DNA of 64,000 nt from Candidatus Pacearchaeota archaeon (GTDB lineage: Archaea > Nanobdellota > Nanobdellia > Pacearchaeales > GW2011-AR1), in contig JAGVXI010000007.1 of assembly GCA_018303855.1 (NCBI GenBank), positions 12,143-76,142 on the forward strand, written 5' to 3'. Position numbers and translations under genes: made by a program. This document shows, piece after piece, positions 38,665 to 63,916 of the stretch. The notes beneath the pieces were generated by a model that saw only the letters and a program-made list of their open reading frames with translations, did not search any database and was not told the DNA's origin. The first letter of the stretch is position 1. Each line of letters begins with the position of its first letter.

Positions 38665-38684
38665 CAGAATTTAATGTATTAAAG

Positions 38685-39308
38685 TTACCTATTTAATAAA
38701 GTATCTAAATCTCTTTTCAGTTGCGTGGGATTTTTGTAAAGAATTGTGTCCATACCAAGTTGCTTTGCTGGTTTTAGATTTTCAATTTTATCATCAATAA
38801 AAATGACTTCTGAAGGTTGTGCATCCAAATCTCTTAAAACAAATTCATATGCTTTAATATCTGGTTTCATTAAACCAATTTCACACGAAATATAATTCTT
38901 GTCAAACAAATTAAAAACCCTATTTTTGGCTTTATTAAATTCAACTATTTCTTTTTCGGTATTAGTAAAAGAAACAACCTCGTATTTTTTTAAGTTCATT
39001 AAACCTCTTATAATCTCTAAAACCTCTTTAAATATCTTAAAATTTTTTTCATAAACGTCTATATGTTTAGAAAGGAGTTCTTGAGGAGAAGGTTTTTTCA
39101 AATTAAGTCTTTCTAGTGTTTTGGTATAAAATTCTAAAAGTGTCATTTTTCCAATAGGAACAAGGCTATAAATATCTAAATTAGCTTTTTTTAATTCCTC
39201 AAAATTTATTCCTAACAATTCAGAAATTTGTTTGTTAATAATTAACATTGTCTCTGGAACTAAAACACCCCCTAAATCTAATAAGATGTATTTTATCTTG
39301 CTATTCAT
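38685..39308 (-). CDS. HAD-superfamily hydrolase (subfamily IA-like)
   Basis: N-terminal 'ILLDLGGVLV' and C-terminal 'VIFIDDKIENL'. Confidence 0.6.
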   Translation of the reverse strand: MNSKIKYILLDLGGVLVPETMLIINKQISELLGINFEELKKANLDIYSLVPIGKMTLLEFYTKTLERLNLKKPSPQELLSKHIDVYEKNFKIFKEVLEIIRGLMNLKKYEVVSFTNTEKEIVEFNKAKNRVFNLFDKNYISCEIGLMKPDIKAYEFVLRDLDAQPSEVIFIDDKIENLKPAKQLGMDTILYKNPTQLKRDLDTLLNR

Positions 39309-39321
39309 TTTAATCTAAATT

Positions 39322-39786
39322 TTACTTACTTTCCTTTATTTCAATTGGCATTAATCCTGTTAAAGTAGATGATGACTGCAGTTTTTCTCCAAGACTATCA
39401 ACTATTTTTATATTAAATCTCTCGCACACTTCTTGTTCAGGAATCCTGTCATGTTTTCTAAAACTGCATGCAAATATATCTGGCTTAACCATCTCAAGGG
39501 TTTTAGAAACAGTCCTATCTTCATCTATAGAAAGAACAACTTCATCAACTAACTTTAAAGCTTTTATAATTTCTATTCTTTCATTTTGAGGCATAAAAGG
39601 TTTTCCTTTTTTTAATTTGGCTTGATTATCATTGTTTATAATAGCTATCAATCTACCATTTTCTCCAACCAGGTTTTTTGCTAATTTAAATAATTGCAAA
39701 TGGCCAATATGCAATGGGTCAAAATATCCAGAGACTGCAACTACAAGATCTTTTTTTGTTTTTTTATTTTCCATCTTATGGCACAC
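39322..39786 (-). CDS. cytidylyltransferase-fold nucleotidyltransferase resembling HldE domain II (heptose-1-phosphate adenylyltransferase)
   Basis: 'VAVSGYFDPLHIGHLQLF' carries the (H/T)xGH motif, and 'LIAIINNDNQ...KGKPFMPQNERIEIIKALKLVDEVV' follows. Confidence 0.55.
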   Translation of the reverse strand: MCHKMENKKTKKDLVVAVSGYFDPLHIGHLQLFKLAKNLVGENGRLIAIINNDNQAKLKKGKPFMPQNERIEIIKALKLVDEVVLSIDEDRTVSKTLEMVKPDIFACSFRKHDRIPEQEVCERFNIKIVDSLGEKLQSSSTLTGLMPIEIKESK

Positions 39787-39794
39787 AATTTTGA

Positions 39795-40718
39795 CTAAAT
39801 AAATTTTTCTAAATTTATTTCCTCTTTTCTAAAAAGTATTTTATCCATTTCTTTTATGCAGTCTTCATGAGTAATTTTGTCAAATTCTTCTTTGGATTTA
39901 ACAGGAATATGCCCTGCAACATCTCCGCTCCCTTTACATCTCTGCAGATATTCTTTTCCTATAGTAATCAAAATGCCATCATAACCCTGAGATATTGTAT
40001 GGGGTACTCCTCTGTTTTTATACTTATCTCCTAATTCCTTTTGGACATTTGATAAAAATGAAACAACTCCTTTAACATCTTCTTTATGAAAAACAAGATG
40101 AGAGAATGGAAAAGAAGGCATTACAGATATATCTTTTGTTTTTTTGCAGGAAATTTTCTCTGCAGCATCAAATCCATATGTTTTTCCTAGTATATCATAC
40201 CCATTTCTGAATGTTGTTAAATGCCAGTGTTCATGAGCTGGGATGGTTGCTCCAAAACCAGGGCTATTATGAAAAATTTCAAAACCTGTTTTATCTGAAA
40301 AATTTACAAAATAATTAAGTTCACTTTCAAGATTATCTATTTTCTGGGTTGTATACATTGGACGTTCTTTTTCAGTAATAGCCAAAGAAAAACCTTCTAT
40401 AATAGGGAATTTATTTATTGTGAATATATAATCTAAAACCTTTTCTTCAGTAATAAGGTTCATTAGTTGGTTATTTTTTGCTGATAAAGATGCATTGCAT
40501 AAACTGCAGTTTGAAGATTCTTTTATATTTTCCTGGCTGGTGGGTCTATTAAAACGATTTTCATTATGTATTATGCCAAAAACATATCCTGGGTTAGCAT
40601 TGCTTTCAACAATCCTAATATTTGGCTTGTAGGCATCTTTTGGGATGCCTTCTACTTCTGCAGCTTTGTGCCATCTTTCTAATACCTTTTGTCTAAGTGT
40701 TGAAAATTTTTCTGACAT
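39795..40718 (-). CDS. putative GalT-like HIT-superfamily nucleotidyltransferase/phosphorylase (tentative)
   Basis: 'CSLC' (CxxC) sits upstream of 'PAHEHWH' (HxHxH-like), as in the GalT/Ap4A-phosphorylase branch of HIT. There is no other support. Confidence 0.3.
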   Translation of the reverse strand: MSEKFSTLRQKVLERWHKAAEVEGIPKDAYKPNIRIVESNANPGYVFGIIHNENRFNRPTSQENIKESSNCSLCNASLSAKNNQLMNLITEEKVLDYIFTINKFPIIEGFSLAITEKERPMYTTQKIDNLESELNYFVNFSDKTGFEIFHNSPGFGATIPAHEHWHLTTFRNGYDILGKTYGFDAAEKISCKKTKDISVMPSFPFSHLVFHKEDVKGVVSFLSNVQKELGDKYKNRGVPHTISQGYDGILITIGKEYLQRCKGSGDVAGHIPVKSKEEFDKITHEDCIKEMDKILFRKEEINLEKFI

Positions 40719-44918: not shown

Positions 44919-47669
44919 ATGAAGGCAGTGATACTTGCTGGAGGAAGAGGTAAAAGAACAGGGCAATATGGAGAAGAAAAACCAAAATGTCTTTTTGAGT
45001 TTAATAGGAAAACGATTCTTGCACATCAGCTTGAAGCATTAATAGCAAATGGCATAAAGGATATTATTATTATTACAGGATATAAAGAATTTATGATTAA
45101 AGATTTTATAAAAAACAACCACCAATTCAGCAACTTGAATATTCAGTATATAAATAATCCATATTATGAGACAACAAATACCTCATATGGGTGGTGGCTT
45201 TGCAGAGAATATGTTAAAAATGAAGAAGCTATACTACATTTTAATTCTGATTTGATTTTTTTTCCAGAACTTATTAAAAGGGTTATTGAAGATGATCACA
45301 AGAACATTTTATGTATTGACAGAAAGGTAGAGTTCAACGATAGCATGGAACAGGTTATTTTAAATGAAAAAACAGGACAAATTCTTCATATGGATAAAGC
45401 AAATATTCCTGGAGCTCATGGCAAAGGAGTGGGAGTTGCAAAATTCTCAAATGAAACAATTAATTTTATACTAAACAAGCTTGATGAGTTTATTATTGGT
45501 AAAGGAGATAGAGGGCAGAATTTTTATAAAATGATTAGGATAGCTGTAAAATACCTTGACTTTTATGGTTTGGATATAGGTGAATCTTTTTTTAGAGAAG
45601 TTAACACAGTTGGAGACTATGATATTACCAAGAGAGAATATGCTAAGCTAATACTAAAAGAATTACCTAAAAAAAGTATAAAAACAATTATCTTGGCAGG
45701 TGGGAAAGGGGACAGGTTAAAGCATTTTGTTGAAAATGTGCCAACAGCGCTCTTAAGTGTCGAAAACAAACCATTGCTTGCTTATCAGCTTGAGGCATTA
45801 ATGGCAAATGGCATTAATGATATTATTGTAATTATTGGATATAAAGGATTTATGATTAAGGAGTTTATAAAAGAACATCCAAAATTTAAAAATTTAAATA
45901 TAACTTATGTTGAAAACGATGAGTACAATACCACTGGCACAGCTTATGGATGGTGGTTAGCCAAGAGCCATATGAAAAATGAGCAATCAGTTTTACACAT
46001 TCATTCAGACTTAATTTTCTCTGAAGATTTAATAAAAAATATTATTGAGGATAAGAGAAAAAATGTTATTTGCATTGATAAAAAAATAGGGCTGAATGAA
46101 AGCATGGAGCAGGTTATTTTGGATTTGAGAGATGACAAAATGCTGTATATGGATAAAAGAAATGTGCCTGGAGCACATGGCAAGGCTGTTGGAATTGCTA
46201 AGTTTTCAAATGAAGCTGTTGAATATATGTTAAATAGAATACAGGCATATGTTGATTTAGGAGACAAAAACCAGGCATTTTATGGCATAATAAGAAAAAC
46301 AATCCATGAACACGATTTTTATGGCTTGAATATAGAGAATTCTTTTTTTAGAGAGGTAAATACAGTAGAAGACTACCAAAAAACATTACAGCTGCAACAA
46401 GCACAGGAAAAACCCCCTGTGCCAGAGAAAACATCTGTTATAATGCTTTATGGATTGCCTGTAAGCGGTAAAACCACTGCCTCAAGAAAGATAAGAGATT
46501 ATTTTGAAAAAGACATTAATATAGAGGTTATATCAACTTTTAAAATCAGGGAAGAAAAAAACCTTATTAATCTTTATTCTGAAGAGCAAAGAGAAAGGGT
46601 TTATGATGAAATTTGCAAAGTCCTTGAGGAAAAACTGCAAAAGAATATCTATAAATGCATTATTCTTGACGGAAATTTCAATAAAAAGGAAAGAAGACAA
46701 AAAGTGTATAATGTTTTAAAAAGATATAATTGCGATTTTTACATTATTGAGTGCTTTATTGAAAACACAAATGAAATTAAAAAAAGGCTTTCAGAAAGAA
46801 AAGGAGATTTTGGGGTTGAAAATGCGGCAACAAGTTTTGAACTTTATAGTATGATTAAAAATGAGGGGCATCTGCTCTCTGAAGACGAGTTTATTAACCC
46901 TATTCCGATTATCATTTCTTTTAATACAGAAACCAACTCTGTTCAATTAAAACCGCAGCAGTATCTTGTAAGGGGGATAATTGAGGCTTTGAAAGAGCCA
47001 AAGCCTGTTTTAAGCAATATAACAGAGATTATTTTTGTGAGGCATGGGGAAACACAAAACAATAAGGAAGGAATTTTACAGGGACATTCAGATATTCCAT
47101 TAAATGAGCAGGGATTCAAAGAGGCAGAAGAACTGGCATTATTCTTAAAAGATATTAAAACAGATTTAATAATTTCAAGTGATCTACCAAGAGCAATGCA
47201 GTGTGCTAAAAGAATTGCTTGGGGGAACCCCCATTTAGCAATAATTGAGGAGCCATTGCTAAGAGAAAAATATTTTGGAAAACACCAAGGAGTTAGTGTT
47301 TTAGAATTAGGCTATCCAAGTATTGATTATTATAATTTAACAAAACATCTTTATGAATGCAATTGTCCTGACGGAGAGAGTAATGAGCAATTGTCAGAAA
47401 GAATAAAACAATTCCTTAAAAAATTAGTAAAAGAACATAGCGGCAAACGTATGCTGGTGATTACACACGGAGGGTTTATCATGCTAGCAATAAATCATCT
47501 TCTAAAAGAAGAAATTAAGCTTGAAAATGCAAGACAGCATAAAAACGGGTATGTTTCTTATTTTAAACTTGATAATAACTTAAATGTTATTGATTCACTA
47601 ATTGATGTTCATGCTTCTAAAGTTGCGGGATATTTGAAAATAAATAATAATGAAGATAGGATTAATTAG
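44919..47669 (+). CDS. four-domain fusion: tandem LicC/PntC-like sugar/alcohol-phosphate cytidylyltransferase domains (aa 1-245 and 250-495), a P-loop kinase (about aa 500-690) and a histidine phosphatase/PGM-family domain (about aa 700-916)
   Basis: 'MKAVILAGGRGKR' and 'IKTIILAGGKGDRL' each start a LicC-like domain ('IIITGYK', 'YGWWL', 'HFNSDLIF', 'REVNTVGDY'). 'LYGLPVSGKTT' is a Walker A motif. 'IIFVRHGETQNN...SSDLPRAMQ' is the RHG phosphatase signature. Confidence 0.6.
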   Translation: MKAVILAGGRGKRTGQYGEEKPKCLFEFNRKTILAHQLEALIANGIKDIIIITGYKEFMIKDFIKNNHQFSNLNIQYINNPYYETTNTSYGWWLCREYVKNEEAILHFNSDLIFFPELIKRVIEDDHKNILCIDRKVEFNDSMEQVILNEKTGQILHMDKANIPGAHGKGVGVAKFSNETINFILNKLDEFIIGKGDRGQNFYKMIRIAVKYLDFYGLDIGESFFREVNTVGDYDITKREYAKLILKELPKKSIKTIILAGGKGDRLKHFVENVPTALLSVENKPLLAYQLEALMANGINDIIVIIGYKGFMIKEFIKEHPKFKNLNITYVENDEYNTTGTAYGWWLAKSHMKNEQSVLHIHSDLIFSEDLIKNIIEDKRKNVICIDKKIGLNESMEQVILDLRDDKMLYMDKRNVPGAHGKAVGIAKFSNEAVEYMLNRIQAYVDLGDKNQAFYGIIRKTIHEHDFYGLNIENSFFREVNTVEDYQKTLQLQQAQEKPPVPEKTSVIMLYGLPVSGKTTASRKIRDYFEKDINIEVISTFKIREEKNLINLYSEEQRERVYDEICKVLEEKLQKNIYKCIILDGNFNKKERRQKVYNVLKRYNCDFYIIECFIENTNEIKKRLSERKGDFGVENAATSFELYSMIKNEGHLLSEDEFINPIPIIISFNTETNSVQLKPQQYLVRGIIEALKEPKPVLSNITEIIFVRHGETQNNKEGILQGHSDIPLNEQGFKEAEELALFLKDIKTDLIISSDLPRAMQCAKRIAWGNPHLAIIEEPLLREKYFGKHQGVSVLELGYPSIDYYNLTKHLYECNCPDGESNEQLSERIKQFLKKLVKEHSGKRMLVITHGGFIMLAINHLLKEEIKLENARQHKNGYVSYFKLDNNLNVIDSLIDVHASKVAGYLKINNNEDRIN

Positions 47670-47775
47670 TGTGAAAAATAAGTTAACTGATTATAAATAT
47701 TAGTTATGCCTAATAATTATTAACAATTTTTATTATTCATTAATTAAAACCTCATTAACAAATGTGTATCAAACC

Positions 47776-48408
47776 TCACAAATTCAAAATCTCCCTCAAA
47801 TCCCTAATTTTCCTTCCTTGATAATCTGGGTGCTTGTTTTTTGAATCAAAAAGAACAGCATTACTTCTTGTTATTTGAGCTCCGCGAATATCAGATATGA
47901 GATTATCCCCCACCATTATTGTGTTTTCAGGAGAAGAGCCGATTTTTTTAAAACAAAGTTCAAAGATTTCTTTTTGAGGTTTCTTTAATCCGACTTTGTG
48001 AGAAAGAACAATTACATCAACATATTCTCTAAACCCTTTTTCAATAATAACTTTATCAACAAAGTTATTATTATCAGATAAAATAGCAATTTTGGAGCCT
48101 TTTTTTCTTAATTCATTCAGCACTTCTATAGCATGTGGCAAGATTTCTGTTTTGCTTAGTATATTATCTAATTTTGAAAAAAATTCTCTTTTTTGTTCTT
48201 CTGTAAAAGATAATCTAAGATGATTTAAGAGAGCATTAAGAGCAGCCTCTCTTGAACCAAAATCTCTCACATCTAAGAAGTATCTAATGTCTGTAAAATA
48301 ATCTTCTGCATTTTTTCCAAAACTTTTGCTCATAAGTTCAACATAAGCAGACATGTCAAAACTAACTAAAGTTTCAAAAAAATCAAAAATATAATTCATT
48401 TTTGCCAA
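47776..48408 (-). CDS. HAD-like hydrolase (non-canonical motif I)
   Basis: 'YIFDFFETLV' at the N-terminus; 'LSDNNN' and 'MVGDNLISDIRGA' at the C-terminus. Confidence 0.5.
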   Translation of the reverse strand: MAKMNYIFDFFETLVSFDMSAYVELMSKSFGKNAEDYFTDIRYFLDVRDFGSREAALNALLNHLRLSFTEEQKREFFSKLDNILSKTEILPHAIEVLNELRKKGSKIAILSDNNNFVDKVIIEKGFREYVDVIVLSHKVGLKKPQKEIFELCFKKIGSSPENTIMVGDNLISDIRGAQITRSNAVLFDSKNKHPDYQGRKIRDLREILNL

Positions 48409-49448
48409 AATTTTTTTGTTAAATTAATCCTTTTACCATTTGATTCTGCAGACTTATAAAATCCAAAGATTACCTTCATAGCAGGAATAGAATCCTTCCC
48501 TTCTATTAATGGTTCCCTACCTTTCATAACTGAATCGACAAAATCATTTATTATTATTTCATGACATGGTCCATAATAAGCTGGTCTGTATTTTAAAGGG
48601 ATTGCATTTAAATTTGCGTCTAAAGGAGCAGGCATATTTGGAACACTCCATACAGGAGTTAAATCATCAGATAAAACAATTTTTCCATTTTCTCCTGAAA
48701 TGCTGATAATTGAAAGAGTTTCTTGATTATTAGGACCAAGAGAAGAATTATTAGCTTCTAAATTAGCTACAAAGCCATTTCTAAAATAAATTTTTCCTTT
48801 TGCATAATCTTCTATCTCTAAATAATCTCTAGTTGTCTTGGTAACTCCTTCAACGGCAATAGGCTCGCCAAAAATAAAGACAATTTGATCAATTCTGTGT
48901 AAAGTTTGGCTCATTAAAACCCCGCCTCCTGTTTTTTTTGCTGCTCTCCAACCATTATAAAATTCTTTTTTCTTATAACAGCTAAAATCTAACTCCACAT
49001 TGCGAATTTTTCCAAGAAGCCCTTCTTTAACAGCTTCCCTTGCAGCTATTGTATTAGGATAAAGTCTTCTTTGAAGCATTGTTGAAAATTTAACCCCTTC
49101 TTTATCACACGTGTCTATCATATCCTCAATATCTGACATTTTTGAGGCCAGAGGCTTCTCGCATAAAACATCAAGTCCATTTTTAGCAAAGAAAATTGTT
49201 TGTTCAGGATGCTCATAGTGGGGTGTTAAAATAAAAACTGCATCCAGATTGTCTTTCAAAACATCTTTGTAATCTGTATATACCTCATTTATATTAAATT
49301 CTTTTGCCTGTTTTTCAGCTTTTTCAGGATTAATATCCGCAACAGAAACAACTTCTGCATCAGGACTTTTACTTAAAGTGTAAAGATATGTGGGGGAAAC
49401 ATTTCCACATCCTATAACAGCAGATTTTACGAGCCTCGATTTTTTCAT
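48396..49448 (-). CDS. Gfo/Idh/MocA-family NAD(P)-dependent oxidoreductase
   Basis: 'KSAVIGCGNVS' and 'GLDVLCEKPLA'. Confidence 0.75.
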   Translation of the reverse strand: MKKSRLVKSAVIGCGNVSPTYLYTLSKSPDAEVVSVADINPEKAEKQAKEFNINEVYTDYKDVLKDNLDAVFILTPHYEHPEQTIFFAKNGLDVLCEKPLASKMSDIEDMIDTCDKEGVKFSTMLQRRLYPNTIAAREAVKEGLLGKIRNVELDFSCYKKKEFYNGWRAAKKTGGGVLMSQTLHRIDQIVFIFGEPIAVEGVTKTTRDYLEIEDYAKGKIYFRNGFVANLEANNSSLGPNNQETLSIISISGENGKIVLSDDLTPVWSVPNMPAPLDANLNAIPLKYRPAYYGPCHEIIINDFVDSVMKGREPLIEGKDSIPAMKVIFGFYKSAESNGKRINLTKKFWQK

Positions 49449-49451
49449 TTA

Positions 49452-50285
49452 TTGAAATACATGGCATGCCTTATAAATCTTGCTTACATAAAATATATAA
49501 ACAAAAATGCGCAATTGATAAATATGAAAAATAAAGATAGAGGTAGAAAAATTCCTTCTGTAAAAGAATTAAAGAAGTTATGCCAAAAACCAGAACCGCC
49601 AAAATACTGGCGTGATAGATTTCTACGAAAAATATCAATACGTTTTACAAAATTATTTTTAATGCTCGGTATGACCCCAAACCAAGTGAGTTTTCTTGTT
49701 TTGATTTTCGGGATTATTTCTGCTTTATTTTATATGACTGGGCAGTATTTTTATTTGCTAATCGGACTGTTATTTCATCATCTGCATTTTATTTTTGATG
49801 GATGCGACGGAGAAGTAGCAAGATTTAGGAAAACTAATGAGCTAGAAGATACCCGAGGAGTTTATCTCGATGGAATGACTCATGCAATAGTTATCCCTTT
49901 ATTAATTATGGGCATGGCTATTGGTTCTTATTTTAATAATTTTACACCTTTTCCAGATGCAACCTTTTTAATTGCTGGTTTTTTTGGGGGGTATTCTTTA
50001 TTACTGCTTAATTTTAGTCGTGTTAAAAAATATGAAGTGTTCACAAAAAAAGGCAGATATGATATTTTAAAAAAAATTAATAGGATTCTTTCTGGAAAAG
50101 AAGGAAAATCAAATTGGTTAAGAACTGAGATAGAATTCTTATTGGGTTTTGAATTGTTTAATTTAATGTTTGTTTTTACAATATTAAACTTAGTACCTTA
50201 TTTGGTATTATTTTATGCGATATTCTTTACCTTATTTGCTATTAGAAGATTTTATTTGGGGTATAAAAATATAGAGAGAATTTAA
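49452..50285 (+). CDS. CDP-alcohol phosphotransferase-like integral membrane protein
   Basis: 'DGCDGEVARFRKTNELEDTRGVYLDGMTH' approximates the DGx2ARx8Gx3Dx3D signature, with a longer loop and a terminal H. Polytopic. Confidence 0.5.
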   Translation: MKYMACLINLAYIKYINKNAQLINMKNKDRGRKIPSVKELKKLCQKPEPPKYWRDRFLRKISIRFTKLFLMLGMTPNQVSFLVLIFGIISALFYMTGQYFYLLIGLLFHHLHFIFDGCDGEVARFRKTNELEDTRGVYLDGMTHAIVIPLLIMGMAIGSYFNNFTPFPDATFLIAGFFGGYSLLLLNFSRVKKYEVFTKKGRYDILKKINRILSGKEGKSNWLRTEIEFLLGFELFNLMFVFTILNLVPYLVLFYAIFFTLFAIRRFYLGYKNIERI

Positions 50286-50436
50286 ATAAAGTTTAATAAT
50301 TTCAGGATAGAAAATACTTAATCATCTATATAACAACAAATAGATAATACACAGCTAGTTAAGATTAGCTTAAGTAGATTATACACTAAATACTCACATT
50401 ATTAATTTTAAAATTAGCATCTGAATTGTCAAAATC

Positions 50437-51195
50437 TCAAGTATACCCCAAAGCTCTAAGTTTTGCCATTACTTCTTCTCTTACTATCCCTCTTCCTGCT
50501 CTTTCATGAGCATTTGGGTCTGTATTTTTCTCAGAGAATATTGTGCACCCTAAAGAAGTATATCCCTGAGCATAAAGAGGGTTGCATTCAAGATTAAATT
50601 TTTTAACATATTCTAAAATATCAGCTTGTCTCCAAAATAACAGTGGATGCACTCTAATATGAATCGGATTTTGCCTTGGTGAAAAAAAAGTTTCTTTTGC
50701 TCTTTCTTCATGCTCTACTCCTCTTAACCCCACAAAAAAAGCATTAAATCCTCTATCACTAATTGCTTTCATCATAGGGGCTATTTTATGATACCCGTCA
50801 TATGCTACAGTAAATTCAGGAGTTTTAAATCCATACAATTGCTTAAATTCTTCTGTACGTATTTGGTCTGCTCTAACTTTTTGATAATCTTTTATGTCCC
50901 ACCCTATTATGACTTTGTTTACAAAGTCGTAAGTTTCTGGAAATTCATGCTGGGTATCTACAAAAACGCAGGGGATATTTTTCTTTAAAGGCAAAACAAG
51001 ATGCAATAAAACTAAACTATCTGTTCCTCCACTAAAACCCAGCCCTATCTTAGAATATCTTTCAAGAGCCTCTTTTATGATTTCTTTAGACTTTTCTATT
51101 TTTTTATCAAGAGGTAAAGCCAATAAAGGCTTAATCTCTGGTCTCATTAAATCCTCACAAATCTTTGCCCTCTCTTTTGTAAATGTTTCAACCAT
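50437..51195 (-). CDS. PAPS-reductase-family PP-loop protein
   Basis: 'GLGFSGGTDSLVLLH' (SGGxDS PP-loop) and C-terminal '...YTSLGCT...ERAGRG'. Confidence 0.6.
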   Translation of the reverse strand: MVETFTKERAKICEDLMRPEIKPLLALPLDKKIEKSKEIIKEALERYSKIGLGFSGGTDSLVLLHLVLPLKKNIPCVFVDTQHEFPETYDFVNKVIIGWDIKDYQKVRADQIRTEEFKQLYGFKTPEFTVAYDGYHKIAPMMKAISDRGFNAFFVGLRGVEHEERAKETFFSPRQNPIHIRVHPLLFWRQADILEYVKKFNLECNPLYAQGYTSLGCTIFSEKNTDPNAHERAGRGIVREEVMAKLRALGYT

Positions 51196-51271
51196 TATGT
51201 ATAATTATATATAATTAAGGTATTTAAATATTTATATAATGGAGGACATAAAAATAGAAATGAATATACAA

Positions 51272-51523
51272 TTAATACCCTAAAATTCTTAACCTTTTAA
51301 TCAATTCTGATTCTTCTTCTTTTTCAAGAACTTTATTTTTATCGTCGGGTTCTGGAGAAGAAAGAATTTGCCTTAAAACAAATGAGACATAAGCTGAAAC
51401 AGAAGGCATGCCAGTTCCCTTTATTCTTTTTTGGATTTTTTCAATTAAAGGGATGGGCAAGGAAATTGTGCCATATTTAACCTTAATGTCATTTTTTTTA
51501 GGTTTTTTCATAATTATACACAA
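51272..51523 (-). CDS. small ribbon-helix-helix (CopG-like) DNA-binding protein, tentative
   Basis: 'ISLPIPLIEKIQKRI...SVSAYVSFVLRQIL' has a beta strand followed by two helices. Confidence 0.35.
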   Translation of the reverse strand: MCIIMKKPKKNDIKVKYGTISLPIPLIEKIQKRIKGTGMPSVSAYVSFVLRQILSSPEPDDKNKVLEKEEESELIKRLRILGY

Positions 51524-51593
51524 TTAGACAGCATTATTAAATGTTGCCCTGAAGTATATGAAAGTTTAAAAGTTCAAATATCATAAAAAAACA

Positions 51594-52889
51594 ATGAAAA
51601 ATATTGTTATTATCATCATAGATGCTTTAAGGCCAAAAAACCTCAGTTTGTTTGGGTATAACAAAGAAACAGACAAAAATCTTAAAGAAATTGCAAAAGA
51701 ATCTACATTGTTCAGAAACTTTTTTTCTGTTTCTAATTCTACTTTTCCAACAATAACAAGCTTGTTTACAGGCAAGTATCCAAAAACTCACGGAATAATG
51801 CATCAAGCTCCATATGCAACACCAGAAGAATACGAAAAATTGCTGGCAATAGAACAGCCAAAATTTTGGCTTCCGACTTATCTAAAAAACAAAGGCTATT
51901 ACACTATTGGAATTGACTGGATAGGTTTATGGTTTAAAGAGGGTTTTGAATATTATGGAGAGAAAAAAGAAGCGTTTTATAAAAAATTTACAAAAAACGC
52001 AGCAGTAAAAAAAATTTTGTTAAACTTGCCAAGTTGGGCTTATAAATTTGGAAAAAGTTTTGTAAAAAATAAAAATGAAAAACTGTTTCCCTCTGCAAAA
52101 CAAATGGCTGATTTAGCAATAGATAAAGTTAAAGAAGCTGAAAAATTAAACAAACCATTTTTTCTTTTTATGCATTTTGAAGATACTCATTTTCCTTATC
52201 CAAATGTACCTAAACCAGAACTTTCAGGAGAAAATGATATTAATGAAGTTTTAGAAAAAATCAATACTGATTCACAAAGAGAATATTTTAAGAAAAGAGT
52301 TGCAGATATTGAATTAGCTTCAATTAAAGATATGAAAAATAAATATGACTTAGCTATTACTGGAATAGATGAACAAATAGGAAGAATAAGAAATTTTTTA
52401 ATCGAAAATGAGCAGTGGGAAGATACAATGTTTATTATCTTGTCTGACCATGGGGATTGCTTGGATGAACACGGAGTTTATTTTAGTCATGCAAGTCTTT
52501 TTGATGAATCTGTTCATGTCCCACTAATCATGAAAATACCTAATTTTAAAAGTAGAGAGATCAATGAATTTGCACAAACTCCTGACATTGCACCAACTAT
52601 CTTGGAAGGATTTGGCGATAAGGGGGATTTTGAAGGAAAATCAGTTATTTCATTAATAAAAAAAGGCAACCCGTTAAGAGATAAAGTGCTTTTATATGAT
52701 GGCTTGGCACCTGATGTTAAAGCTGTGAGAACAAAAAAAAGAAAACTTATTATTGCTAATGGTAATAAATGCAATTTATGTAAATCAGAACACCATGCAA
52801 AAATAGAAGAATATGACTTAGAAAAAGACCCTAATGAAACAAATAATATCTATTCGGGAAAAAGTGAGTTAATGGAGTTTATTAAATAA
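51594..52889 (+). CDS. alkaline-phosphatase-superfamily (sulfatase-like) enzyme with Thr rather than Cys/Ser at the nucleophile position. It appears soluble.
   Basis: 'NIVIIIIDALRPKN', 'STFPTITSLFTGKYP' (aligned with the sulfatase CxPxRxxxxTG) and 'SDHGDCLDEHG'. Confidence 0.6.
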   Translation: MKNIVIIIIDALRPKNLSLFGYNKETDKNLKEIAKESTLFRNFFSVSNSTFPTITSLFTGKYPKTHGIMHQAPYATPEEYEKLLAIEQPKFWLPTYLKNKGYYTIGIDWIGLWFKEGFEYYGEKKEAFYKKFTKNAAVKKILLNLPSWAYKFGKSFVKNKNEKLFPSAKQMADLAIDKVKEAEKLNKPFFLFMHFEDTHFPYPNVPKPELSGENDINEVLEKINTDSQREYFKKRVADIELASIKDMKNKYDLAITGIDEQIGRIRNFLIENEQWEDTMFIILSDHGDCLDEHGVYFSHASLFDESVHVPLIMKIPNFKSREINEFAQTPDIAPTILEGFGDKGDFEGKSVISLIKKGNPLRDKVLLYDGLAPDVKAVRTKKRKLIIANGNKCNLCKSEHHAKIEEYDLEKDPNETNNIYSGKSELMEFIK

Positions 52890-52899: not shown

Positions 52900-53388
52900 A
52901 TGAAAAGATTGAATTTAGGTTGTGGACCAGATTATAGAAAAGGTTGGGTAAACGTAGATATAAGAAAAGACATTAAGGCAGATATTGTTCATAATTTAAA
53001 TAAGTTCCCTTATCCATTTAAAGAAGATGAATTTGATATTACATTAATAAGCCATACTTTAGAGCATTTGGATTATCCTGAAAGAGTTTTAAAAGAAGTG
53101 GTAAAAATATGCAAAAGCGGTGCAAAGTTGATAGTTGAAGTGCCACATGCGTTTTCTTATGCAAATGCTACTGATATGCAGCATAGGCGTAATTTTACTG
53201 AGAACTCATTTACAAGAAAACATATTATGCAATATGGATTGGGAGCATTAAGATTGCGAAAAAAGGTATTTCTTTACCCAGTGAATAAATGGAAGAAGTA
53301 TATCCCATTGAAAAGGGTTCTTAAAATTTTCTTCAATGGGATTTATGACAATCTTTTATTTGAGTTTAAGATTGAGAAGGAGAAATAA
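52900..53388 (+). CDS. class I SAM-dependent methyltransferase, paralogue 2 of 3
   Basis: 'RLNLGCGPDYRKGWVNVDI...LEHLDYPE...GAKLIVEVPH'. Confidence 0.6.
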   Translation: MKRLNLGCGPDYRKGWVNVDIRKDIKADIVHNLNKFPYPFKEDEFDITLISHTLEHLDYPERVLKEVVKICKSGAKLIVEVPHAFSYANATDMQHRRNFTENSFTRKHIMQYGLGALRLRKKVFLYPVNKWKKYIPLKRVLKIFFNGIYDNLLFEFKIEKEK

Positions 53389-53437
53389 AGATTTTAACAC
53401 AATTAAGTATTTAAACAGATTTTTTAATCTGAATTAG

Positions 53438-54553
53438 ATGAATAAGAGATTAAAAATAGCAATCTTTGAACCTTCTCGTGGAGTTGTTGGGGGAGGGCAG
53501 AAAGCAATGGCAAAAATTGCTGCGCACTTAGCCGAAAAACATGATGTTACAATTTTTACGCAAAGGCCTCCAGAACAAAAGTTTGAATTAGATTTTGGAA
53601 AAGCATGCATTAAATATATTAAACCAAATAAACAATTTCTTGCTCCACTTGCATTTTTATTAAAAAAAGTCAGTGGTTTTGATTTATTATTTTTAGGGGG
53701 ATTTCCTGCTAATTTAGGAAGTATTAGGAATAGTAAAAGCACTCCCTGCATCACTCTTTGTTATTCCCCAACAAGGGTTTTTTATGATTTGCGGGAACAT
53801 TTAAAAAAATGTTCTACACGTAGTGGGCAGATAAAATTAATTTTCAAAACCATCTTTCTTAGGAGATTGGATTATATGGCTTCCCAAAAAACACACTTAA
53901 TTTTAGCTATTAGCAAAACTATTGAAGAGAGAGTTAAAAGGTATTATAAAAGAAAATCTGTTGTTTTTTACCCCGGAATTGATTCTTATCAGTTTAAAAA
54001 AGGGAAATATAACAATTATATTCTAAGTGTTGCCAGATTTGTTTCTGCAAAAAGAGTGGATATGATAATAAAAAGCATGGAATATGTTAAAAATAAAAAA
54101 ATTCAGATGTATATTGTGGGGGCAGGCGAAAGAGAAAAAGAATATCGAGCGCTTGCAAAAAAATATCCTAATGTTAAATTTCTTGGTTTTGTAAGCAACA
54201 AAAAACTTTTCGAACTTTACGCAAATTGCCTTGCAGCTATCTACATTCCAATAGATGAAGATGAAGGGTATGTGCCAATTGAAGCTGGTGCATCTGAAAA
54301 AACAACAATAGGCGTAAACGAAGGCGGACTACGTGAAACCATTATTAACGGCAAAACAGGATTTTTAATTGATAATGTAACACCACAAAAAGTGGCGGAA
54401 AAAATAGATTTTTTAGCCAATAATAAAAAAATAGCGAAGAAAATGGGCAAAGAAGCATACAAATATACCCGAAAATTTGATTGGAAAAATACTCTTACCG
54501 AACTTGATAAAGCAATTGAAAAATTATTAAAAATAAAAGCCAAGGTAAAATGA
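53438..54553 (+). CDS. GT4 (GT-B) glycosyltransferase
   Basis: 'EDEGYVPIEAGASEKTTIGVNEGGLRETI'. Confidence 0.7.
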   Translation: MNKRLKIAIFEPSRGVVGGGQKAMAKIAAHLAEKHDVTIFTQRPPEQKFELDFGKACIKYIKPNKQFLAPLAFLLKKVSGFDLLFLGGFPANLGSIRNSKSTPCITLCYSPTRVFYDLREHLKKCSTRSGQIKLIFKTIFLRRLDYMASQKTHLILAISKTIEERVKRYYKRKSVVFYPGIDSYQFKKGKYNNYILSVARFVSAKRVDMIIKSMEYVKNKKIQMYIVGAGEREKEYRALAKKYPNVKFLGFVSNKKLFELYANCLAAIYIPIDEDEGYVPIEAGASEKTTIGVNEGGLRETIINGKTGFLIDNVTPQKVAEKIDFLANNKKIAKKMGKEAYKYTRKFDWKNTLTELDKAIEKLLKIKAKVK

Positions 54554-55068
54554 AAAAATTAAATCTTGGAAGCGGATTTGATTATAAGCGAGGCTGGATA
54601 AATGTTGATATTAATAATAAAGATATTTATGGAAGAAAAATAAAAATTGATGTGAAGCATGACTTGAACAAATCTCCTTGGCCATTTAAAAAAAATGAAT
54701 TTGATTTTGTGTTGATGAAAGGTGTCCTTGAACATATGAGTGATATTGATAAAACAATTAAAGAATTAGCAAGAATTACAAAAACAGGAGCTAAAATAAA
54801 AATTTCTGTCCCTTATTTTACAAGCTATTTTGCATATAGAGAACTTTATACACATAAATTCTCGTTAAATGCTTTGCAATTATTTGGTATATTTAAAAAA
54901 TACAGATTAATAATAATCTCAAAAAAATTAAGAAACAATAACAAATTCTTAAAATGGATAGAAATTTTTGTTAATTTTAATGAATCAACCCAAAACTTTT
55001 ATGAAAGATTTTTTTCTGGGATTTTTCCAATGAACCAGATTGAGTGGGTGTTAAGAGTTGAAAAATGA
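54550..55068 (+). CDS. class I SAM-dependent methyltransferase, paralogue 3 of 3
   Basis: 'KLNLGSGFDYKRGWINVDI...LEHMSD...GAKIKISVPY'. Confidence 0.6.
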   Translation: MKKLNLGSGFDYKRGWINVDINNKDIYGRKIKIDVKHDLNKSPWPFKKNEFDFVLMKGVLEHMSDIDKTIKELARITKTGAKIKISVPYFTSYFAYRELYTHKFSLNALQLFGIFKKYRLIIISKKLRNNNKFLKWIEIFVNFNESTQNFYERFFSGIFPMNQIEWVLRVEK

Positions 55069-60067: not shown

Positions 60068-61609
60068 CTACTTATGTTTGAATATTTTCTTCTTAATGCT
60101 CCTCAAAATCAAAAAATCATTTTTATCCAGACAACCAGTTGCAAATATTAGGATTAAATAAATAAGCAAGAATAATATGCCAATTAAGATTAAGCTTAGA
60201 TTATTAATTGGAACAATCTCTTTTAAATAAAAGAGTATAAAAATTGGGATAAGTGAAACAGAAAAAATTCTTAGCATTTTTCTTCTAAAAGGAAATGCCT
60301 TTGTTAATGAATATGTTTGTGTTATTAACCCAATACTCATCATCACATTAACAAAACTAGTTGATAGGGCTGCACCAATTAAACCATATTTTGGAATAAG
60401 AAGTAGCCCCAAAATAAGATTAAAAAGAGATGCTAAAATTAAATTTAATAGGAGTAGCTTTGATTTTCCAGCCATAGAGATTATGTTAGTTGTTATTGGA
60501 ATAACTAAAGCTGCAATCAATCCTCCTACCGCAATAATCCTTAAAGGTTCTTGGGCAATAATGTACCCGGGTCCAAAAAGTAAATTAACAATTGCTTCTG
60601 GAAATAGTATTAAAAGTAAAAAAATCGGCAGAATTATAATAAAAATCCATTTACTAACTTGTTTAGTTAATTCCCGTATCACTATAAAATTCCTGTTTGA
60701 AAATTCTTTTGTAATTAATGGAAAAAAAAGCTGCATAAATAATTCTGGTGCAATGCCCATTACTCCTACAATTGTGATGGCAACATTATAAAACCCAACA
60801 CTAGAAACATCCATAAAATACCCAATTATGAATGAATCTATTTCATAAAATATTGAGGTCATAAGAGAGAAAAACATAATAGGCCATGAATATGAAAAAA
60901 ATTTCTTTATTTCTTCTTTTTTTATTTTTTGATTAATGATGTATGGCCCAAATATTTCTGGAACCTTGTATCTACAAATTAGATAAGCTACTATAAAAAC
61001 ACTCATAATTCCTGCAGCATAAGACCAGATAATTGCATTTGTTTTAAATCCCATCAAAACAAATAAGATTAGGGCAAAAACCTTGGCAAAATTAATCAAG
61101 ATATTTGAAACAAAAGAGTACCATCCAATTTTTTCATATGCCCTGATTATTGAAGCAAAGACTCTTGAAAAAACATAAAATGGGATAAACAAGCTAAAAA
61201 CTTTTAAGAAGATAATTAACTCAGGCGTATGGAATATTTTTACAGCAATAAAATCAGCTGAGACATACATCATAATCGCAGCAAAGACTGTGGAAAAAGA
61301 CAGGAATATCAGAGAAAATCTTAAGATATTTTTTATTTTAGCAATTTCTTTTTTTCCGCGATATAAAGAGACAAATCTAAGGACTCCTCTAGCTAAACCA
61401 AATGCGGCAATAACTGTAAACCACCCTAAAATCATAATAGCCAAAGAGAACATTCCGTAAATTTCTGGGCCAAAATATCTTGCAAGAATTACTTTATACA
61501 CATAAGTGAATAGTTTTGATAAAGTCAAACCAATAAGAACAACTATAGAGGATTTTATAATTAATTTAAGCCCTCTATTTACCTCTTCATTTTCGTGATG
61601 TTCATCCAT
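60068..61609 (-). CDS. MOP-superfamily polysaccharide flippase (Wzx-like)
   Basis: 513 aa with about 14 TM segments, as expected for Wzx/PST family transporters. Confidence 0.65.
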   Translation of the reverse strand: MDEHHENEEVNRGLKLIIKSSIVVLIGLTLSKLFTYVYKVILARYFGPEIYGMFSLAIMILGWFTVIAAFGLARGVLRFVSLYRGKKEIAKIKNILRFSLIFLSFSTVFAAIMMYVSADFIAVKIFHTPELIIFLKVFSLFIPFYVFSRVFASIIRAYEKIGWYSFVSNILINFAKVFALILFVLMGFKTNAIIWSYAAGIMSVFIVAYLICRYKVPEIFGPYIINQKIKKEEIKKFFSYSWPIMFFSLMTSIFYEIDSFIIGYFMDVSSVGFYNVAITIVGVMGIAPELFMQLFFPLITKEFSNRNFIVIRELTKQVSKWIFIIILPIFLLLILFPEAIVNLLFGPGYIIAQEPLRIIAVGGLIAALVIPITTNIISMAGKSKLLLLNLILASLFNLILGLLLIPKYGLIGAALSTSFVNVMMSIGLITQTYSLTKAFPFRRKMLRIFSVSLIPIFILFYLKEIVPINNLSLILIGILFLLIYLILIFATGCLDKNDFLILRSIKKKIFKHK

Positions 61610-63903: not shown

Positions 63904-63916
63904 TTTGATTACACTT

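Follow-up and report, generated by a model that had tools for sequence, protein, structure and literature searches.

The early fosfomycin pathway comprises Fom1 (a cytidylyltransferase-PEP mutase), Fom2, FomC and Fom3. Group 1 phosphonolipid clusters, described in Burkholderia and Nostoc, contain ppm, ppd, an AEP transaminase, an NTP transferase and a CDP-alcohol phosphatidyltransferase (PMC8942020, PMC5987646). In the N-glycosylation cluster of Halobacterium, the sulfatase-fold AP-superfamily proteins Agl30 and Agl31 are sulfotransferases, as demonstrated by genetics and heterologous expression (PMC11980604).

Organisation of the locus

We analysed a 64,000-nucleotide stretch of DNA (the window) from Candidatus Pacearchaeota (DPANN). 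The host is a tiny symbiotic archaeon, and the genes lie within a large surface-glycan and phosphonate island. A preliminary description had joined four genes into a single module (HAD phosphatase, Gfo/Idh/MocA oxidoreductase, CDP-alcohol phosphotransferase-like membrane protein and AP-superfamily enzyme), and all four are present where it placed them. It passed over two genes between the third and the fourth, for a PAPS_reduct protein and an 83- or 79-aa protein, which are the true partners of the fourth. The relevant features are:

44919-47669, + strand: NTase fusion, 916 aa, with two LicC/PntC-like nucleotidyltransferase domains, a P-loop kinase and a histidine phosphatase; putative head-group activation
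47776-48408, - strand: HAD-fold hydrolase (Pfam Hydrolase, 79 bits)
48396-49448, - strand: Gfo/Idh/MocA NAD(P) oxidoreductase (Pfam GFO_IDH_MocA N- and C-terminal domains)
49524-50285, + strand: CDP-alcohol phosphotransferase (CDP-OH PT), 253 aa (ORF 49452-50285; PF01066 and AF2299 matches)
50437-51195, - strand: PAPSr, a CysD/CysH-like PP-loop protein of the "PAPS reductase family" (Pfam PAPS_reduct, 137 bits)
51272-51511, - strand: small conserved protein, 79 aa from its ATG (83-aa ORF, 51272-51523), with homologues that have an LGY tail
51594-52889, + strand: SulfT, an S1-sulfatase-fold enzyme (Pfam Sulfatase, 148 bits)
52900-55068, + strand: methyltransferase, GT4 glycosyltransferase and methyltransferase (Pfam), co-directional genes downstream of SulfT that form its glycan context
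61647-64000, - strand: phosphonate operon, with the C-terminus of PEP mutase (63904-64000), phosphonopyruvate decarboxylase (62773-63957) and an Fe-alcohol dehydrogenase (Fe-ADH, 61647-62780)

The interval holds two adjacent modules, each conserved independently, not one. In module 1 (44919-50285), genes for a nucleotidyltransferase, a kinase, an oxidoreductase and a phosphatase accompany the CDP-alcohol transferase. Of the loci that have enough flank and encode a CDP-OH PT of the window's type (with a His described below), 11/11 have an NTase no more than 4 kb away. Seen from the other side, 26 SulfT loci have 2.5 kb or more of flank on each side; in these, SulfT adjoins the small LGY protein in 21 and PAPSr in 19, whereas CDP-OH PT occurs in 2. 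The proposed linkage of CDP-OH PT, NTase, Gfo and HAD genes is upheld, but the AP-superfamily protein falls outside it; likewise, CDP-OH PT is co-conserved with the NTase while SulfT, counted from its own side, does not follow the NTase fusion. Among loci with the His-type CDP-OH PT, SulfT is confined to a Pacearchaeota subclade. SulfT is nevertheless near CDP-OH PT in approximately 5/7 loci of close CDP-OH PT homologues, and in locus L163 the two adjoin directly, with the SulfT start at the CDP-OH PT stop codon, so some functional coupling between the modules is possible. We give about an even chance to the reading in which module 1 is a Kennedy-type head-group pathway and module 2 a glycan sulfation system. 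The identities of the genes, the changed motifs, the folds and the co-occurrence are observations, whereas the substrates throughout, the sulfate chemistry and the function of the tail are inferred.

Module 1: a candidate head-group pathway

The NTase fusion matches Pfam NTP_transferase (twice), AAA_33/KTI12 and His_Phos_1. The best PDB matches of its NTase part, LicC (1jyk, E 1.6e-16) and PntC (6pd1), are both cytidylyltransferases; its phosphatase part best matches CobC, and the kinase and phosphatase half aligns to PFKFB2 (5htk). A separate small cytidylyltransferase is encoded at 39322-39786, so phosphonate activation may be its task rather than that of the fusion.

Matches to both Pfam domains bear out the Gfo/Idh/MocA identity of the oxidoreductase; its best NCBIfam matches, inositol 2-dehydrogenase and UDP-GlcNAc 3-dehydrogenase, are both far under cut-off. 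Its gene shares 13 nt with the HAD gene and points away from the CDP-OH PT gene. The HAD protein has the fold that had been proposed, but its motif I (D-F-F-E-T) is without the Asp+2 general acid, as is that of its homologue in L164, a fusion with an MBL-Gfo protein, so the label "phosphatase" is not secure. Gfo and/or the atypical HAD recur beside CDP-OH PT in L164, L166 and L168, with the Gfo gene adjoining CDP-OH PT in each, and relatives in CPR keep company with Gfo or Zn-ADH, NTase, an NTase-DHQS-like fusion, APH kinase and IMPase.

By profile, AF2299 sequence match and predicted fold, the membrane protein is a CDP-alcohol phosphotransferase, as had been suggested. It passes the PF01066 (CDP-OH_P_transf) profile at 23.8 bits (gathering score 22), matches AF2299 (4o6m) at E 3.7e-12, and has an AF2 model (pLDDT 85.8) whose top 18 Foldseek matches are all CDP-alcohol phosphotransferases. 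The true start is probably M25 (49524), judging from a recorded protein (P0001) that is identical over its 253 aa. Its best NCBIfam relatives are DIPPS, AIPS and PIPS, the products of which need a phosphatase.

The motif reads D92-G-C-D95-G-E-V-A-R...G112-V-Y-L-D116-G-M-T-H120, with D92, D95, G96, A99, R100, G112 and D116 of the signature present. The letters had thus been quoted correctly as an approximation of that signature, but the terminal His (H120, 49881-49883) replaces its fourth Asp (D4). This His is conserved at 90% or more in the alignment, occurs at D4 in 13/86 loci of the family, and marks a DPANN/CPR subfamily of CDP-alcohol phosphotransferases. His120 takes the place of the usual catalytic-base Asp, a change that could point to altered chemistry or to loss of activity.

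The head group of module 1 may come from the phosphonate operon at the edge of the window. Its phosphonopyruvate decarboxylase scores 456 bits against TIGR03297 (cut-off 312.5), the Fe-ADH best matches the phosphonate-cluster PsrA family (under cut-off), and the terminal peptide of the PEP mutase matches the C-terminal ends of Ppm in L138, L140 and L141. In L165, a true PEP mutase-NTase fusion is divergent from a CDP-OH PT 47% identical to that of the window. The earlier view that the system uses non-orthologous parts was overstated for module 1, as clusters that unite NTase, CDP-alcohol phosphatidyltransferase and ppm/ppd are already recognised as Group 1 phosphonolipid clusters (PMC8942020, PMC5987646).

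The logic of module 1 would thus be Kennedy-type or, with ppm-ppd-Fe-ADH, phosphonolipid-type. The P-loop kinase and the LicC/PntC-like cytidylyltransferase domains would make a CDP-activated alcohol, either a polyol or cyclitol shaped by Gfo/Idh/MocA or a CMP-phosphonate from the ppm-ppd-ADH operon. The six-helix CDP-alcohol phosphotransferase would then hand the phospho(no)-head group on to an acceptor bound to the membrane, releasing CMP, and the His-phosphatase and atypical HAD would remove leftover phosphate, as happens after the DIPP, PIP and PGP synthases.

Module 2: a candidate glycan sulfation system

In alignment with a solved sulfatase, SulfT Thr50 (51741-51743) occupies the FGly position (T-F-P-T-I vs S-T-P-A-R). 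The Thr reported in this soluble sulfatase fold is therefore real, and it is conserved (Thr in 38/40 homologues, Ser in 2/40). No [CS]x[PA]xR, and hence no CxPxR, occurs anywhere in the SulfT sequence, so there is no FGly motif elsewhere in the protein. The comparison with LtaS, EptA and MdoB fits as regards Thr at the nucleophile position, but by structural comparison the scaffold is of the S1 sulfatase type rather than that of LtaS or EptA. SulfT also has D10, D285-H286 and the conserved motif C393-x2-C396-x3-H400-H401 (52770-52796). It has no signal peptide, its chain begins at the first fold strand, where the metal ligand D10 lies, and it is predicted to be cytoplasmic. The genes at 52900-55068 have homologues (58% identity) in L001, where they lie beside CDP-OH PT and approximately 7 kb downstream of SulfT.

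PAPSr, with 575 homologues, mostly in DPANN, has an intact SGGTDS loop (51016-51033), an ERAGR motif and a C-terminal ...KLRALGYT tail (50440-50460), and is without the ECGLH cysteine. An annotated CysD has this C-terminal signature (ERAGR...LRxxGY) too. PDB matches include CysH/APS reductase and CysD, and all matches to NCBIfam CysH and CysD are under cut-off. The C-terminus of the small protein (...RLRILGY, 51275-51295) mimics this tail, and LGY lies at most two residues from the C-terminus in 54/54 complete homologues found. The small protein is 58% identical to its L001 homologue; its N-terminal half, with sub-threshold matches to RHH_1, is possibly a ribbon-helix-helix. In a Haloarcula glycan cluster, the SulfT homologue retains both Thr and CxxC and has the LGY tail fused to its own C-terminus.

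By analogy with Agl30/Agl31, module 2 (50437-52889; PAPSr, small protein and SulfT) is most likely a glycan sulfation system. In the chemistry that we infer, the CysD-like PP-loop enzyme would convert ATP and sulfate to APS, and SulfT would accept the sulfuryl group on Thr50 and pass it to a sugar of a lipid-linked glycan. Thr can neither become formylglycine nor eliminate sulfate, which would favour transfer over hydrolysis; Recksiek et al. reportedly found in 1998 that FGly-to-Ser arylsulfatase mutants trap the sulfo-enzyme. The small protein, with its CysD-type LGY tail, may be an adaptor or regulator. SulfT clades follow partner type: the Thr clade occurs with PAPSr, and a sister clade with a Ser nucleophile lies beside NTase-kinase or PEP mutase genes, so the scaffold may be a general transferase of nucleotide-activated anionic groups. 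CysN, the GTPase that CysD normally requires, was not seen near PAPSr.

Alternative explanations

A single module is a doubtful alternative. Here SulfT would use its Thr, a nucleophile that in the AP superfamily is typical of phosphoryl rather than sulfuryl transfer, to move phospho-X or phosphonate from the fusion's CDP-/CMP-X to glycan, with the CDP-alcohol transferase as a second, membrane-level outlet for the same donor. The L163 arrangement is consistent with this, as are the recurrent "sulfatases" of bacterial ppm neighbourhoods (PMC8942020) and a sister clade of SulfT that adjoins NTase-kinase homologues of the window fusion (L124, L128, L160) and Fom1-like cytidylyltransferase-PEP mutase genes (L138, L140, L141). 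However, the NTase/Ppm-linked clade has a different active site (Ser vs Thr, T-P vs D-W, C-R-G vs S-H-A, CYLCG vs CNLCK). The window SulfT falls in the Thr clade, which is constantly accompanied by the PP-loop protein but not regularly by NTase, and the S1 scaffold also speaks against an LtaS/EptA-like role.

It is unlikely that PAPSr is instead an FAD-synthetase-like adenylyltransferase making an ADP-linked phospho-compound, from which SulfT would transfer the phospho-group, not sulfate, to glycan. FAD synthetase, an enzyme that adenylylates a phosphate, does belong to the PAPS_reduct family, which would allow a phospho-compound as the activated group, and cytidylyltransferase-containing genes replace PAPSr in other loci, which fits a generic nucleotide-activating role. 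The match to FAD synthase (8rom/8ron) is, however, limited to residues 176-219, while ERAGR, GYxSLG and the C-terminal signature are of CysH/APS reductase/CysD type, and the experimental precedent in archaeal glycan clusters is sulfation (PMC11980604).

SulfT's strongest sequence and fold matches are hydrolases, and the cluster has other phosphatases, so SulfT might simply act in hydrolysis, as a phosphatase, phosphodiesterase or sulfatase that processes a precursor or recovers a by-product, with the PP-loop gene serving ordinary sulfur or nucleotide metabolism. We consider this improbable: the motif for the FGly machinery needed for sulfatase hydrolysis is missing, the three genes are tightly syntenic in glycan clusters on hundreds of DPANN contigs, and a SulfT homologue of haloarchaea carries the LGY tail as a fusion. 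A role in DNA modification or defence like that of BREX type 4 (BrxP PAPS reductase plus the AP-superfamily PglZ) is highly improbable despite PAPSr matches to the PADLOC BrxP model (E 2.7e-17) and, weakly, SspD, as the former covers only the generic PAPS_reduct domain, SulfT (sulfatase-family, not PglZ) and the small protein match no defence model, and the genes around them always encode glycosyltransferases, flippases and sugar-nucleotide enzymes.

Comparison with known systems

The best sequence, profile and fold matches to CDP-OH PT are AF2299/IPCT-DIPPS (Archaeoglobus fulgidus; 4o6m, 4mnd) and the archaetidylinositol-phosphate/PIP synthases. It shares with these an N-terminal juxtamembrane helix, the six-helix core, DGxDGExAR...GxxxD, pairing with a cytidylyltransferase and a likely need for a downstream phosphatase. 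It differs in having His for the fourth Asp (the proposed catalytic base), no fused cytoplasmic domain and a place in a glycan cluster.

Like the Group 1 clusters, the island has ppm-ppd, a LicC/PntC-type NTase and CDP-OH PT, and L165 has its PEP mutase-NTase fusion beside CDP-OH PT. Unlike them, it is archaeal (DPANN), has Fe-ADH (the HEP branch) instead of a transaminase, and has its CDP-OH PT, a His variant, 11 kb from ppm-ppd and beside Gfo and HAD. Fosfomycin-like parts occur in L138 and L141, where a cytidylyltransferase-PEP mutase fusion, a Ppd-B12-radical-SAM fusion and Fe-ADH directly follow SulfT and the small protein; in the window such parts are present but unfused. No epoxidase or FomD homologue was identified, and the context is glycan decoration, not antibiotic synthesis.

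PAPSr shares the PAPS_reduct fold, PP-loop, DT, ERAGR and GYxSLG with CysD (ATP sulfurylase small subunit) and CysH (PAPS/APS reductase), and the ...LRxxGY C-terminus with CysD. Unlike these, it has no CysN partner in view and no catalytic ECGLH cysteine, scores under all curated cut-offs, and has a sulfatase-fold protein as its constant neighbour. Agl30 (VNG1056C) and Agl31 (VNG1057C) of the Halobacterium salinarum N-glycan are likened to SulfT as sulfatase-fold proteins of a glycan cluster (PMC11980604); no PP-loop partner or LGY-tail protein is described for them, and their donor and mechanism are unreported. LtaS, EptA/MCR-1 and OpgB resemble SulfT in their Thr nucleophile, their Asp/Glu-Thr-Asp-His metal ligands and, putatively, the ping-pong transfer of a head group to glycan or lipid.

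Two modules around the nucleotidyltransferase fusion

The region at 44919-52889 holds variants of two known kinds of enzyme, both uncharacterised and each with a conserved substitution of a catalytic residue. The preliminary description treated four of its genes, together with cytidylyltransferases, as one system that makes a CDP- or CMP-activated compound and transfers the phosphorylated group to lipid or glycan. Its observation is confirmed, but the interpretation is supported in part only. All four genes claimed at 47776-52889 are found where they were placed; two intervening genes, for a PP-loop protein of the PAPS_reduct family (PAPSr) and a small protein, were omitted. The genes of the two modules are as follows:

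44919-47669 (+), module 1: nucleotidyltransferase (NTase) fusion, followed by a HAD protein and a Gfo/Idh/MocA protein (Gfo)
49452-50285, module 1: listed open reading frame of the CDP-alcohol phosphotransferase (CDP-OH PT)
50437-51195 (-), module 2: PAPSr
51272-51523 (-), module 2: small protein
51594-52889 (+), module 2: sulfatase-fold AP-superfamily protein (SulfT)

A CDP-alcohol phosphotransferase with His in place of Asp

Both profile and fold identify the membrane protein of module 1 as a CDP-alcohol phosphotransferase. It passes the CDP-OH_P_transf profile check that the preliminary description suggested (PF01066, 23.8 bits, gathering threshold 22, E 6.4e-5), and its close homologues also have precomputed PF01066 matches. 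It matches AF2299 with an E-value of 3.7e-12 (phmmer), and in NCBIfam it comes closest to DIPPS, archaetidylinositol-phosphate synthase and PIP synthase. The only significant structural matches of its AF2 model (pLDDT 85.8, pTM 0.83) are CDP-alcohol phosphotransferases, which make up all of the top 18 Foldseek matches in the PDB, with query-normalised TM-scores of at most 0.60. Because an identical 253-aa database protein begins at the ATG at 49524, the gene probably starts there, and the first 24 codons of the listed reading frame (49452-49523, TTG start) are probably untranslated.

The signature D1xxD2G1xxAR...G2xxxD3xxxD4 is present in seven of its eight residues (D92, D95, G96, A99, R100, G112 and D116), but the D4 position is His120. 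In CDP-alcohol phosphotransferases, the D4 Asp is the proposed catalytic base, and His120 could act as the base in its place. In the subfamily alignment, Patescibacteria homologues included, the His is conserved to at least 90%. A scan of genome contigs with the CDP-OH PT alignment recovered mostly members of the wider DIPPS/AF2299-like family that have the canonical Asp, and its loci served only for NTase adjacency and the His-versus-Asp count: Asp in 72 and His in 13 of 86 family loci. The His type occurs in DPANN and CPR as well as in one Bacillota and one Actinomycetota. The spacer between the Arg and Gly of the signature is 11 residues long in the window protein and 8 in close homologues.

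Neighbours of the phosphotransferase and their proposed chemistry

The NTase fusion, HAD, Gfo and CDP-OH PT, as first grouped, form a genuine association that is conserved widely, since these neighbours recur in loci of close homologues and of Patescibacteria. An NTase lies within 4 kb of CDP-OH PT in 11/11 His-type loci having sufficient flank. An NTase is adjacent in the related locus L122, a Gfo fragment is present in the locus of a close homologue (L166), and in L164 CDP-OH PT adjoins an MBL-Gfo-HAD fusion and a second HAD. The operon of L001 contains an NTase-HAD, a P-loop kinase similar to 2-phosphoglycerate kinase, a KARI-like reductase and a GAPDH-like dehydrogenase. In L165, CDP-OH PT and a genuine PEP mutase-NTase fusion (TIGR02320, 345 bits, cut-off 319.55) are divergently arranged. 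Two Patescibacteria loci (L167 and L168) have a related set, in which the CPR His-variant CDP-OH PT occurs with Gfo or Zn-ADH, an NTase, an NTase-DHQ-synthase-like fusion, an APH-family kinase and an IMPase; this set suggests a CDP-cyclitol head group. L168 additionally carries a TagF-like Glyphos_transf gene and a Sulfotransfer_3 gene. The accessory enzymes around CDP-OH PT and NTase are interchangeable.

Individual assignments within the module differ in firmness. The HAD protein has the HAD fold (Pfam Hydrolase, 79 bits), but its motif I, instead of DxDx[TV], is D-F-F-E-T in the window protein and D-L-F-E-T in that of L164; it lacks the general acid at Asp+2, so the phosphatase role first given to it is not secure. 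Pfam matches both domains of Gfo, whose best NCBIfam matches, inositol 2-dehydrogenase and UDP-GlcNAc 3-dehydrogenase, are far below cut-off. The second NTase domain of the fusion is closest to LicC (CTP:phosphocholine cytidylyltransferase, E 1.6e-16) and also matches PntC (phosphonate cytidylyltransferase). The P-loop kinase and histidine phosphatase at 46425-47669 align as a unit to PFK-2/FBPase-2 (5htk, E 7e-6), an architecture that is fused here to two cytidylyltransferase domains.

In the simplest chemistry that we propose for module 1, the kinase would phosphorylate an alcohol shaped by the oxidoreductase, an NTase domain would make CDP-X, the predicted CDP-OH PT would hand phospho-X on to an acceptor bound to the membrane, releasing CMP, and a phosphatase would take off the residual phosphate. 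A phosphatase step also follows the DIPP, PIP, AIP and PGP synthases. Alternatively, X might be a phosphonate from the operon for PEP mutase (Ppm), phosphonopyruvate decarboxylase (Ppd) and alcohol dehydrogenase; the two NTase domains of the fusion would leave room for both donors.

The window at 47776-51195 shows mosaic relatedness to L164 and L087. Over 55 residues, the PP-loop fragment of L164 shares 96% identity with the window, and the full-length L087 copy 88%, but the neighbouring CDP-OH PT is only 53% and Gfo only 38% identical, a pattern suggestive of recombination or exchange of cassettes within the glycan island.

A sulfatase-fold protein with Thr at the formylglycine position

SulfT scores 148 bits against Pfam Sulfatase, and has the S1 sulfatase fold with C-terminal subdomain and D...D-H metal ligands. 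As first proposed, Thr occupies the formylglycine (FGly) position, in T-F-P-T-I: Thr50 aligns with the FGly-position residue of a solved sulfatase, and the [CS]x[PA]xR motif of S1 sulfatases is absent from the whole protein. Across 40 homologues this position is Thr in 38 and Ser in 2, and the Arg of the motif is always replaced by a hydrophobic residue. D10, D285 and H286 are conserved among homologues and, with T50, give SulfT the Thr nucleophile and E/D, D, H ligands of LtaS/EptA/OpgB-type enzymes. Classification with LtaS, EptA and MdoB nevertheless fails, as LtaS and EptA are not the closest relatives and SulfT has no N-terminal multi-helix membrane domain: its 431 residues begin at catalytic strand 1, with neither a hydrophobic N-terminus nor a signal peptide. 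In the comparison of SulfT with other families, the figures are 33-38 for S1 sulfatases, 28-30 for LtaS/LtaP, 22-27 for EptA/EptC/MCR-1 and about 24 for NPP.

The C-terminal subdomain also contains an invariant C-x2-C-x3-H-H (CxxCKxxHH, 52770-52796), which may be a Zn site. We do not know this motif as a canonical sulfatase feature.

The PP-loop protein, the small protein and their shared tail

PAPSr has a canonical PP-loop (SGGTDS) and, like CysH and APS reductase, the motifs DT, ERAGR and GYxSLG. The ECGLH catalytic cysteine of CysH (PAPS/APS reductase) is absent, and the protein ends in ...KLRALGYT. PAPSr has both the PP-loop and the C-terminal signature of CysD: its C-terminus, ERAGRG..REEVMAKLRALGYT, aligns residue for residue with that of an annotated CysD adjoining cysC, and E231-R-A-G-R235...L246-R247..G250-Y251 are invariant in the alignment with the annotated Skermanella CysD. 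Against the curated CysD family NF003587 it scores 87.7 bits, below the cut-off of 195. CysD normally requires CysN, and no GTPase gene adjoins PAPSr in any annotated locus. Over the best 120 of 575 homologues, identity to PAPSr is 63-90%; the homologues are mostly from DPANN with some from CPR, and each consists of a single domain. Haloarchaeal and Desulfolutivibrio plasmid PAPS-reductase homologues have no informative gene context. A defence (BREX) reading is dropped, as the PADLOC match is limited to the PAPS_reduct domain of BrxP.

The LGY[TSN] tail is conserved in the 37 complete PAPSr homologues found (41 matches in all), and all 54 complete homologues found for the small protein end in [KR]L[KR]xLGY; the N-terminal half of the small protein has sub-threshold ribbon-helix-helix matches only. 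The same motif ends three proteins: the PP-loop protein (50440-50460), the small protein (51275-51295) and a Haloarcula sulfatase-like enzyme (L170:8992-10509). The last is a SulfT homologue (29% identity, E 5e-44) in a plasmid glycan cluster, which keeps the Thr and the CxxC..H motif and has ...KRLEALGYR fused at its own C-terminus. This fusion ties the tail to the enzyme, Rosetta-stone fashion.

Partners of SulfT in related loci

We searched 80 metagenome loci around SulfT homologues with the window proteins, and counted neighbours in the 26 loci with at least 2.5 kb on each side of SulfT.

Table. Neighbours of SulfT
Neighbour; loci
Small protein; 21/26
PAPS-reductase-like protein; 19/26
PEP mutase; 2/26
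CDP-alcohol transferase; 2/26

The small protein and PAPSr usually adjoin SulfT directly. With CDP-OH PT near SulfT in so few loci, the placing of SulfT in the CDP-OH PT module is not supported. Among 36 related SulfT loci of at least 6 kb, the atypical HAD has no significant match and Gfo has weak matches in 2. SulfT is near CDP-OH PT only in a Pacearchaeota subclade (the window, L001, L122, L163 and L087/L164); the two genes abut in L163, so some coupling between the modules is possible.

In a neighbour-joining tree of 62 SulfT homologues, the PAPSr-linked enzymes, the window's included, separate from a second clade. Neighbours in this second clade are either NTase-kinase genes homologous to the window fusion (L124, L128, L160) or, in L138, L141 and partly L140, a cytidylyltransferase-PEP mutase resembling Fom1, together with a Ppd-B12-radical-SAM fusion, an Fe-ADH and an NPP-like protein. 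The SulfT active site co-varies with partner type.

Table. SulfT residues in the two clades
Feature; PAPSr-linked clade; NTase/Ppm-linked clade
Nucleophile; Thr; Ser
Residues 108-109; D-W; T-P
Residues 298-300; S-H-A; C-R-G
C-terminal motif; CNLCK; CYLCG

A nucleotide-activating enzyme is a usual companion of SulfT in loci with enough flank: PAPSr in 19/26 loci and an NTase-kinase or cytidylyltransferase-PEP mutase in most others, with none near SulfT in three (L096, L109, L137). Adjacent activating enzymes and active-site covariation together support a role for the SulfT family as transferases of a nucleotide-activated anionic group. The earlier idea of transfer from a nucleotide-activated donor is thus partly vindicated for the family, but the clade and partner pattern argues that PAPSr, and not CDP-X, is what the window SulfT works with.

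Some loci have further features. In the DPANN loci L138:11642-18136 and L141:11630-18892, the Fom1-like set directly follows a Ser-type SulfT and small protein, there is no PP-loop gene, and the NPP-like protein is an NPP-type phosphodiesterase. On a Nanoarchaeota-type contig (L169:12092-13375), the genes after a SulfT-PAPSr pair encode a RuBisCO large-subunit homologue, an Inositol_P protein of the IMPase/CysQ family and an NTase. A radical SAM/SPASM gene lies directly upstream of SulfT in L001:1468-2508, L099:8947-9963 and L122:7099-8130 (52-66% identical between loci). It matches generic rSAM/SPASM families only, far below cut-off; as an anSME maturase acting on Thr it is rejected, having no anSME model match and being absent from the window.

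The glycan island and its phosphonate genes

SulfT is 100% identical to a database protein that is named sulfatase and comes from a Candidatus Pacearchaeota archaeon, so the source is a DPANN archaeon. The window is AT-rich (GC content approximately 31%), and from approximately 23 kb up to its right end it is a surface-glycan island. This encodes sugar-nucleotide dehydratases and epimerases, DegT aminotransferases and one C-methyltransferase, together with glycosyltransferases of GT2, GT4 and GT34-like type, a PMT_2 protein and a flippase (Polysacc_synt). A search of the window against Rfam gave no RNA features. A phosphonate operon lies at the right window edge:

60068-61609: flippase, next after the phosphonate operon
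61647-64000 (-): phosphonate operon
61647-62780 (-): Fe-alcohol dehydrogenase, PhpC/PsrA-like (best NCBIfam match the phosphonate-cluster PsrA family, below cut-off)
62773-63957 (-): phosphonopyruvate decarboxylase (TIGR03297, 456 bits, cut-off 312.5)
last 97 nt of the window (-): PEP mutase C-terminus (the encoded peptide matches PEP mutase C-termini of related loci)

With its Fe-alcohol dehydrogenase, the operon implies 2-hydroxyethylphosphonate. A separate sub-cluster at 36681-40718 has four genes. One is for a radical SAM enzyme that binds B12 and has Fom3/PhpK-type P- or C-methyltransferases among its matches; the others encode a HAD, a small cytidylyltransferase (CTP_transf_like) and a DUF4922/HIT-like protein. 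The four could provide a Fom1/Fom3-like route to a CMP-activated, methylated phosphonate. The Nitrosopumilus methylphosphonate cluster of Metcalf et al. in 2012 is said to carry 'sulfatase' and nucleotidyltransferase genes.

Sulfation or phosphoryl transfer

Given the Agl30/Agl31 precedent from Halobacterium and the Haloarcula tail fusion, we read PAPSr, the small protein and SulfT as a system for sulfate activation and sulfotransfer. With Thr in place of formylglycine, a covalent intermediate would be passed on instead of hydrolysed; FGly-to-Ser mutants, in work by Recksiek et al. from 1998, reportedly trap the sulfo-enzyme. A fuller version, which we offer tentatively and consider rather unlikely, makes module 2 a PAPS-independent glycan sulfation machine. 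APS would be made by PAPSr as a stand-alone CysD-like PP-loop enzyme, SulfT would be a ping-pong sulfotransferase acting via sulfo-Thr50, and the shared CysD-type LGY tail would couple activation to transfer, while the sister Ser-clade would do the same with CMP-phosphonates.

A live alternative is that PAPSr makes an ADP-linked phospho-donor instead of APS. PAPS_reduct members include FAD synthetase, and Thr nucleophiles are typical of phosphoryl transfer, which favours a phosphoryl-transfer reading of SulfT.

Significance and comparison with known systems

DPANN and CPR are ultra-small symbionts whose surface chemistry is almost unknown. The His-for-Asp signature variant of CDP-OH PT is conserved and common to DPANN archaea and CPR bacteria, and both enzyme sets are connected by the locus with DPANN phosphonate biosynthesis. 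Module 2 offers three proteins that can be tested as a system, Thr50 being the defined nucleophile and PAPSr the candidate for activation, and provides a handle on archaeal glycan sulfation. If the PAPS-independent sulfation reading is true, SulfT would belong to a general transferase family that moves nucleotide-activated oxyanions onto glycans.

For module 1, a known counterpart is the recognised "Group 1 phosphonolipid" class, i.e., clusters of ppm, ppd, NTP transferase and CDP-alcohol phosphatidyltransferase (PMC8942020, PMC5987646), which L165 fits.

For module 2, there is a direct precedent in Halobacterium salinarum, where archaeal glycan sulfation has recently been linked genetically to sulfatase-like AP-superfamily proteins of an N-glycosylation cluster, the membrane-associated Agl30 and the cytosolic Agl31 (PMC11980604). 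A search of its text finds neither a sulfate donor nor PAPS, catalytic residues or an active site mentioned, and the literature text searched gives no annotation for Agl7 (HVO_2046). SulfT is surrounded by glycosyltransferases, methyltransferases, a flippase and sugar-nucleotide enzymes, and its Haloarcula homologue likewise lies in a glycan cluster. As Agl30 and Agl31 are described there, SulfT resembles them in being a sulfatase-like AP-superfamily protein encoded in a glycosylation cluster, and PAPS-independent sulfation, if true, would supply the missing donor and mechanism for both.
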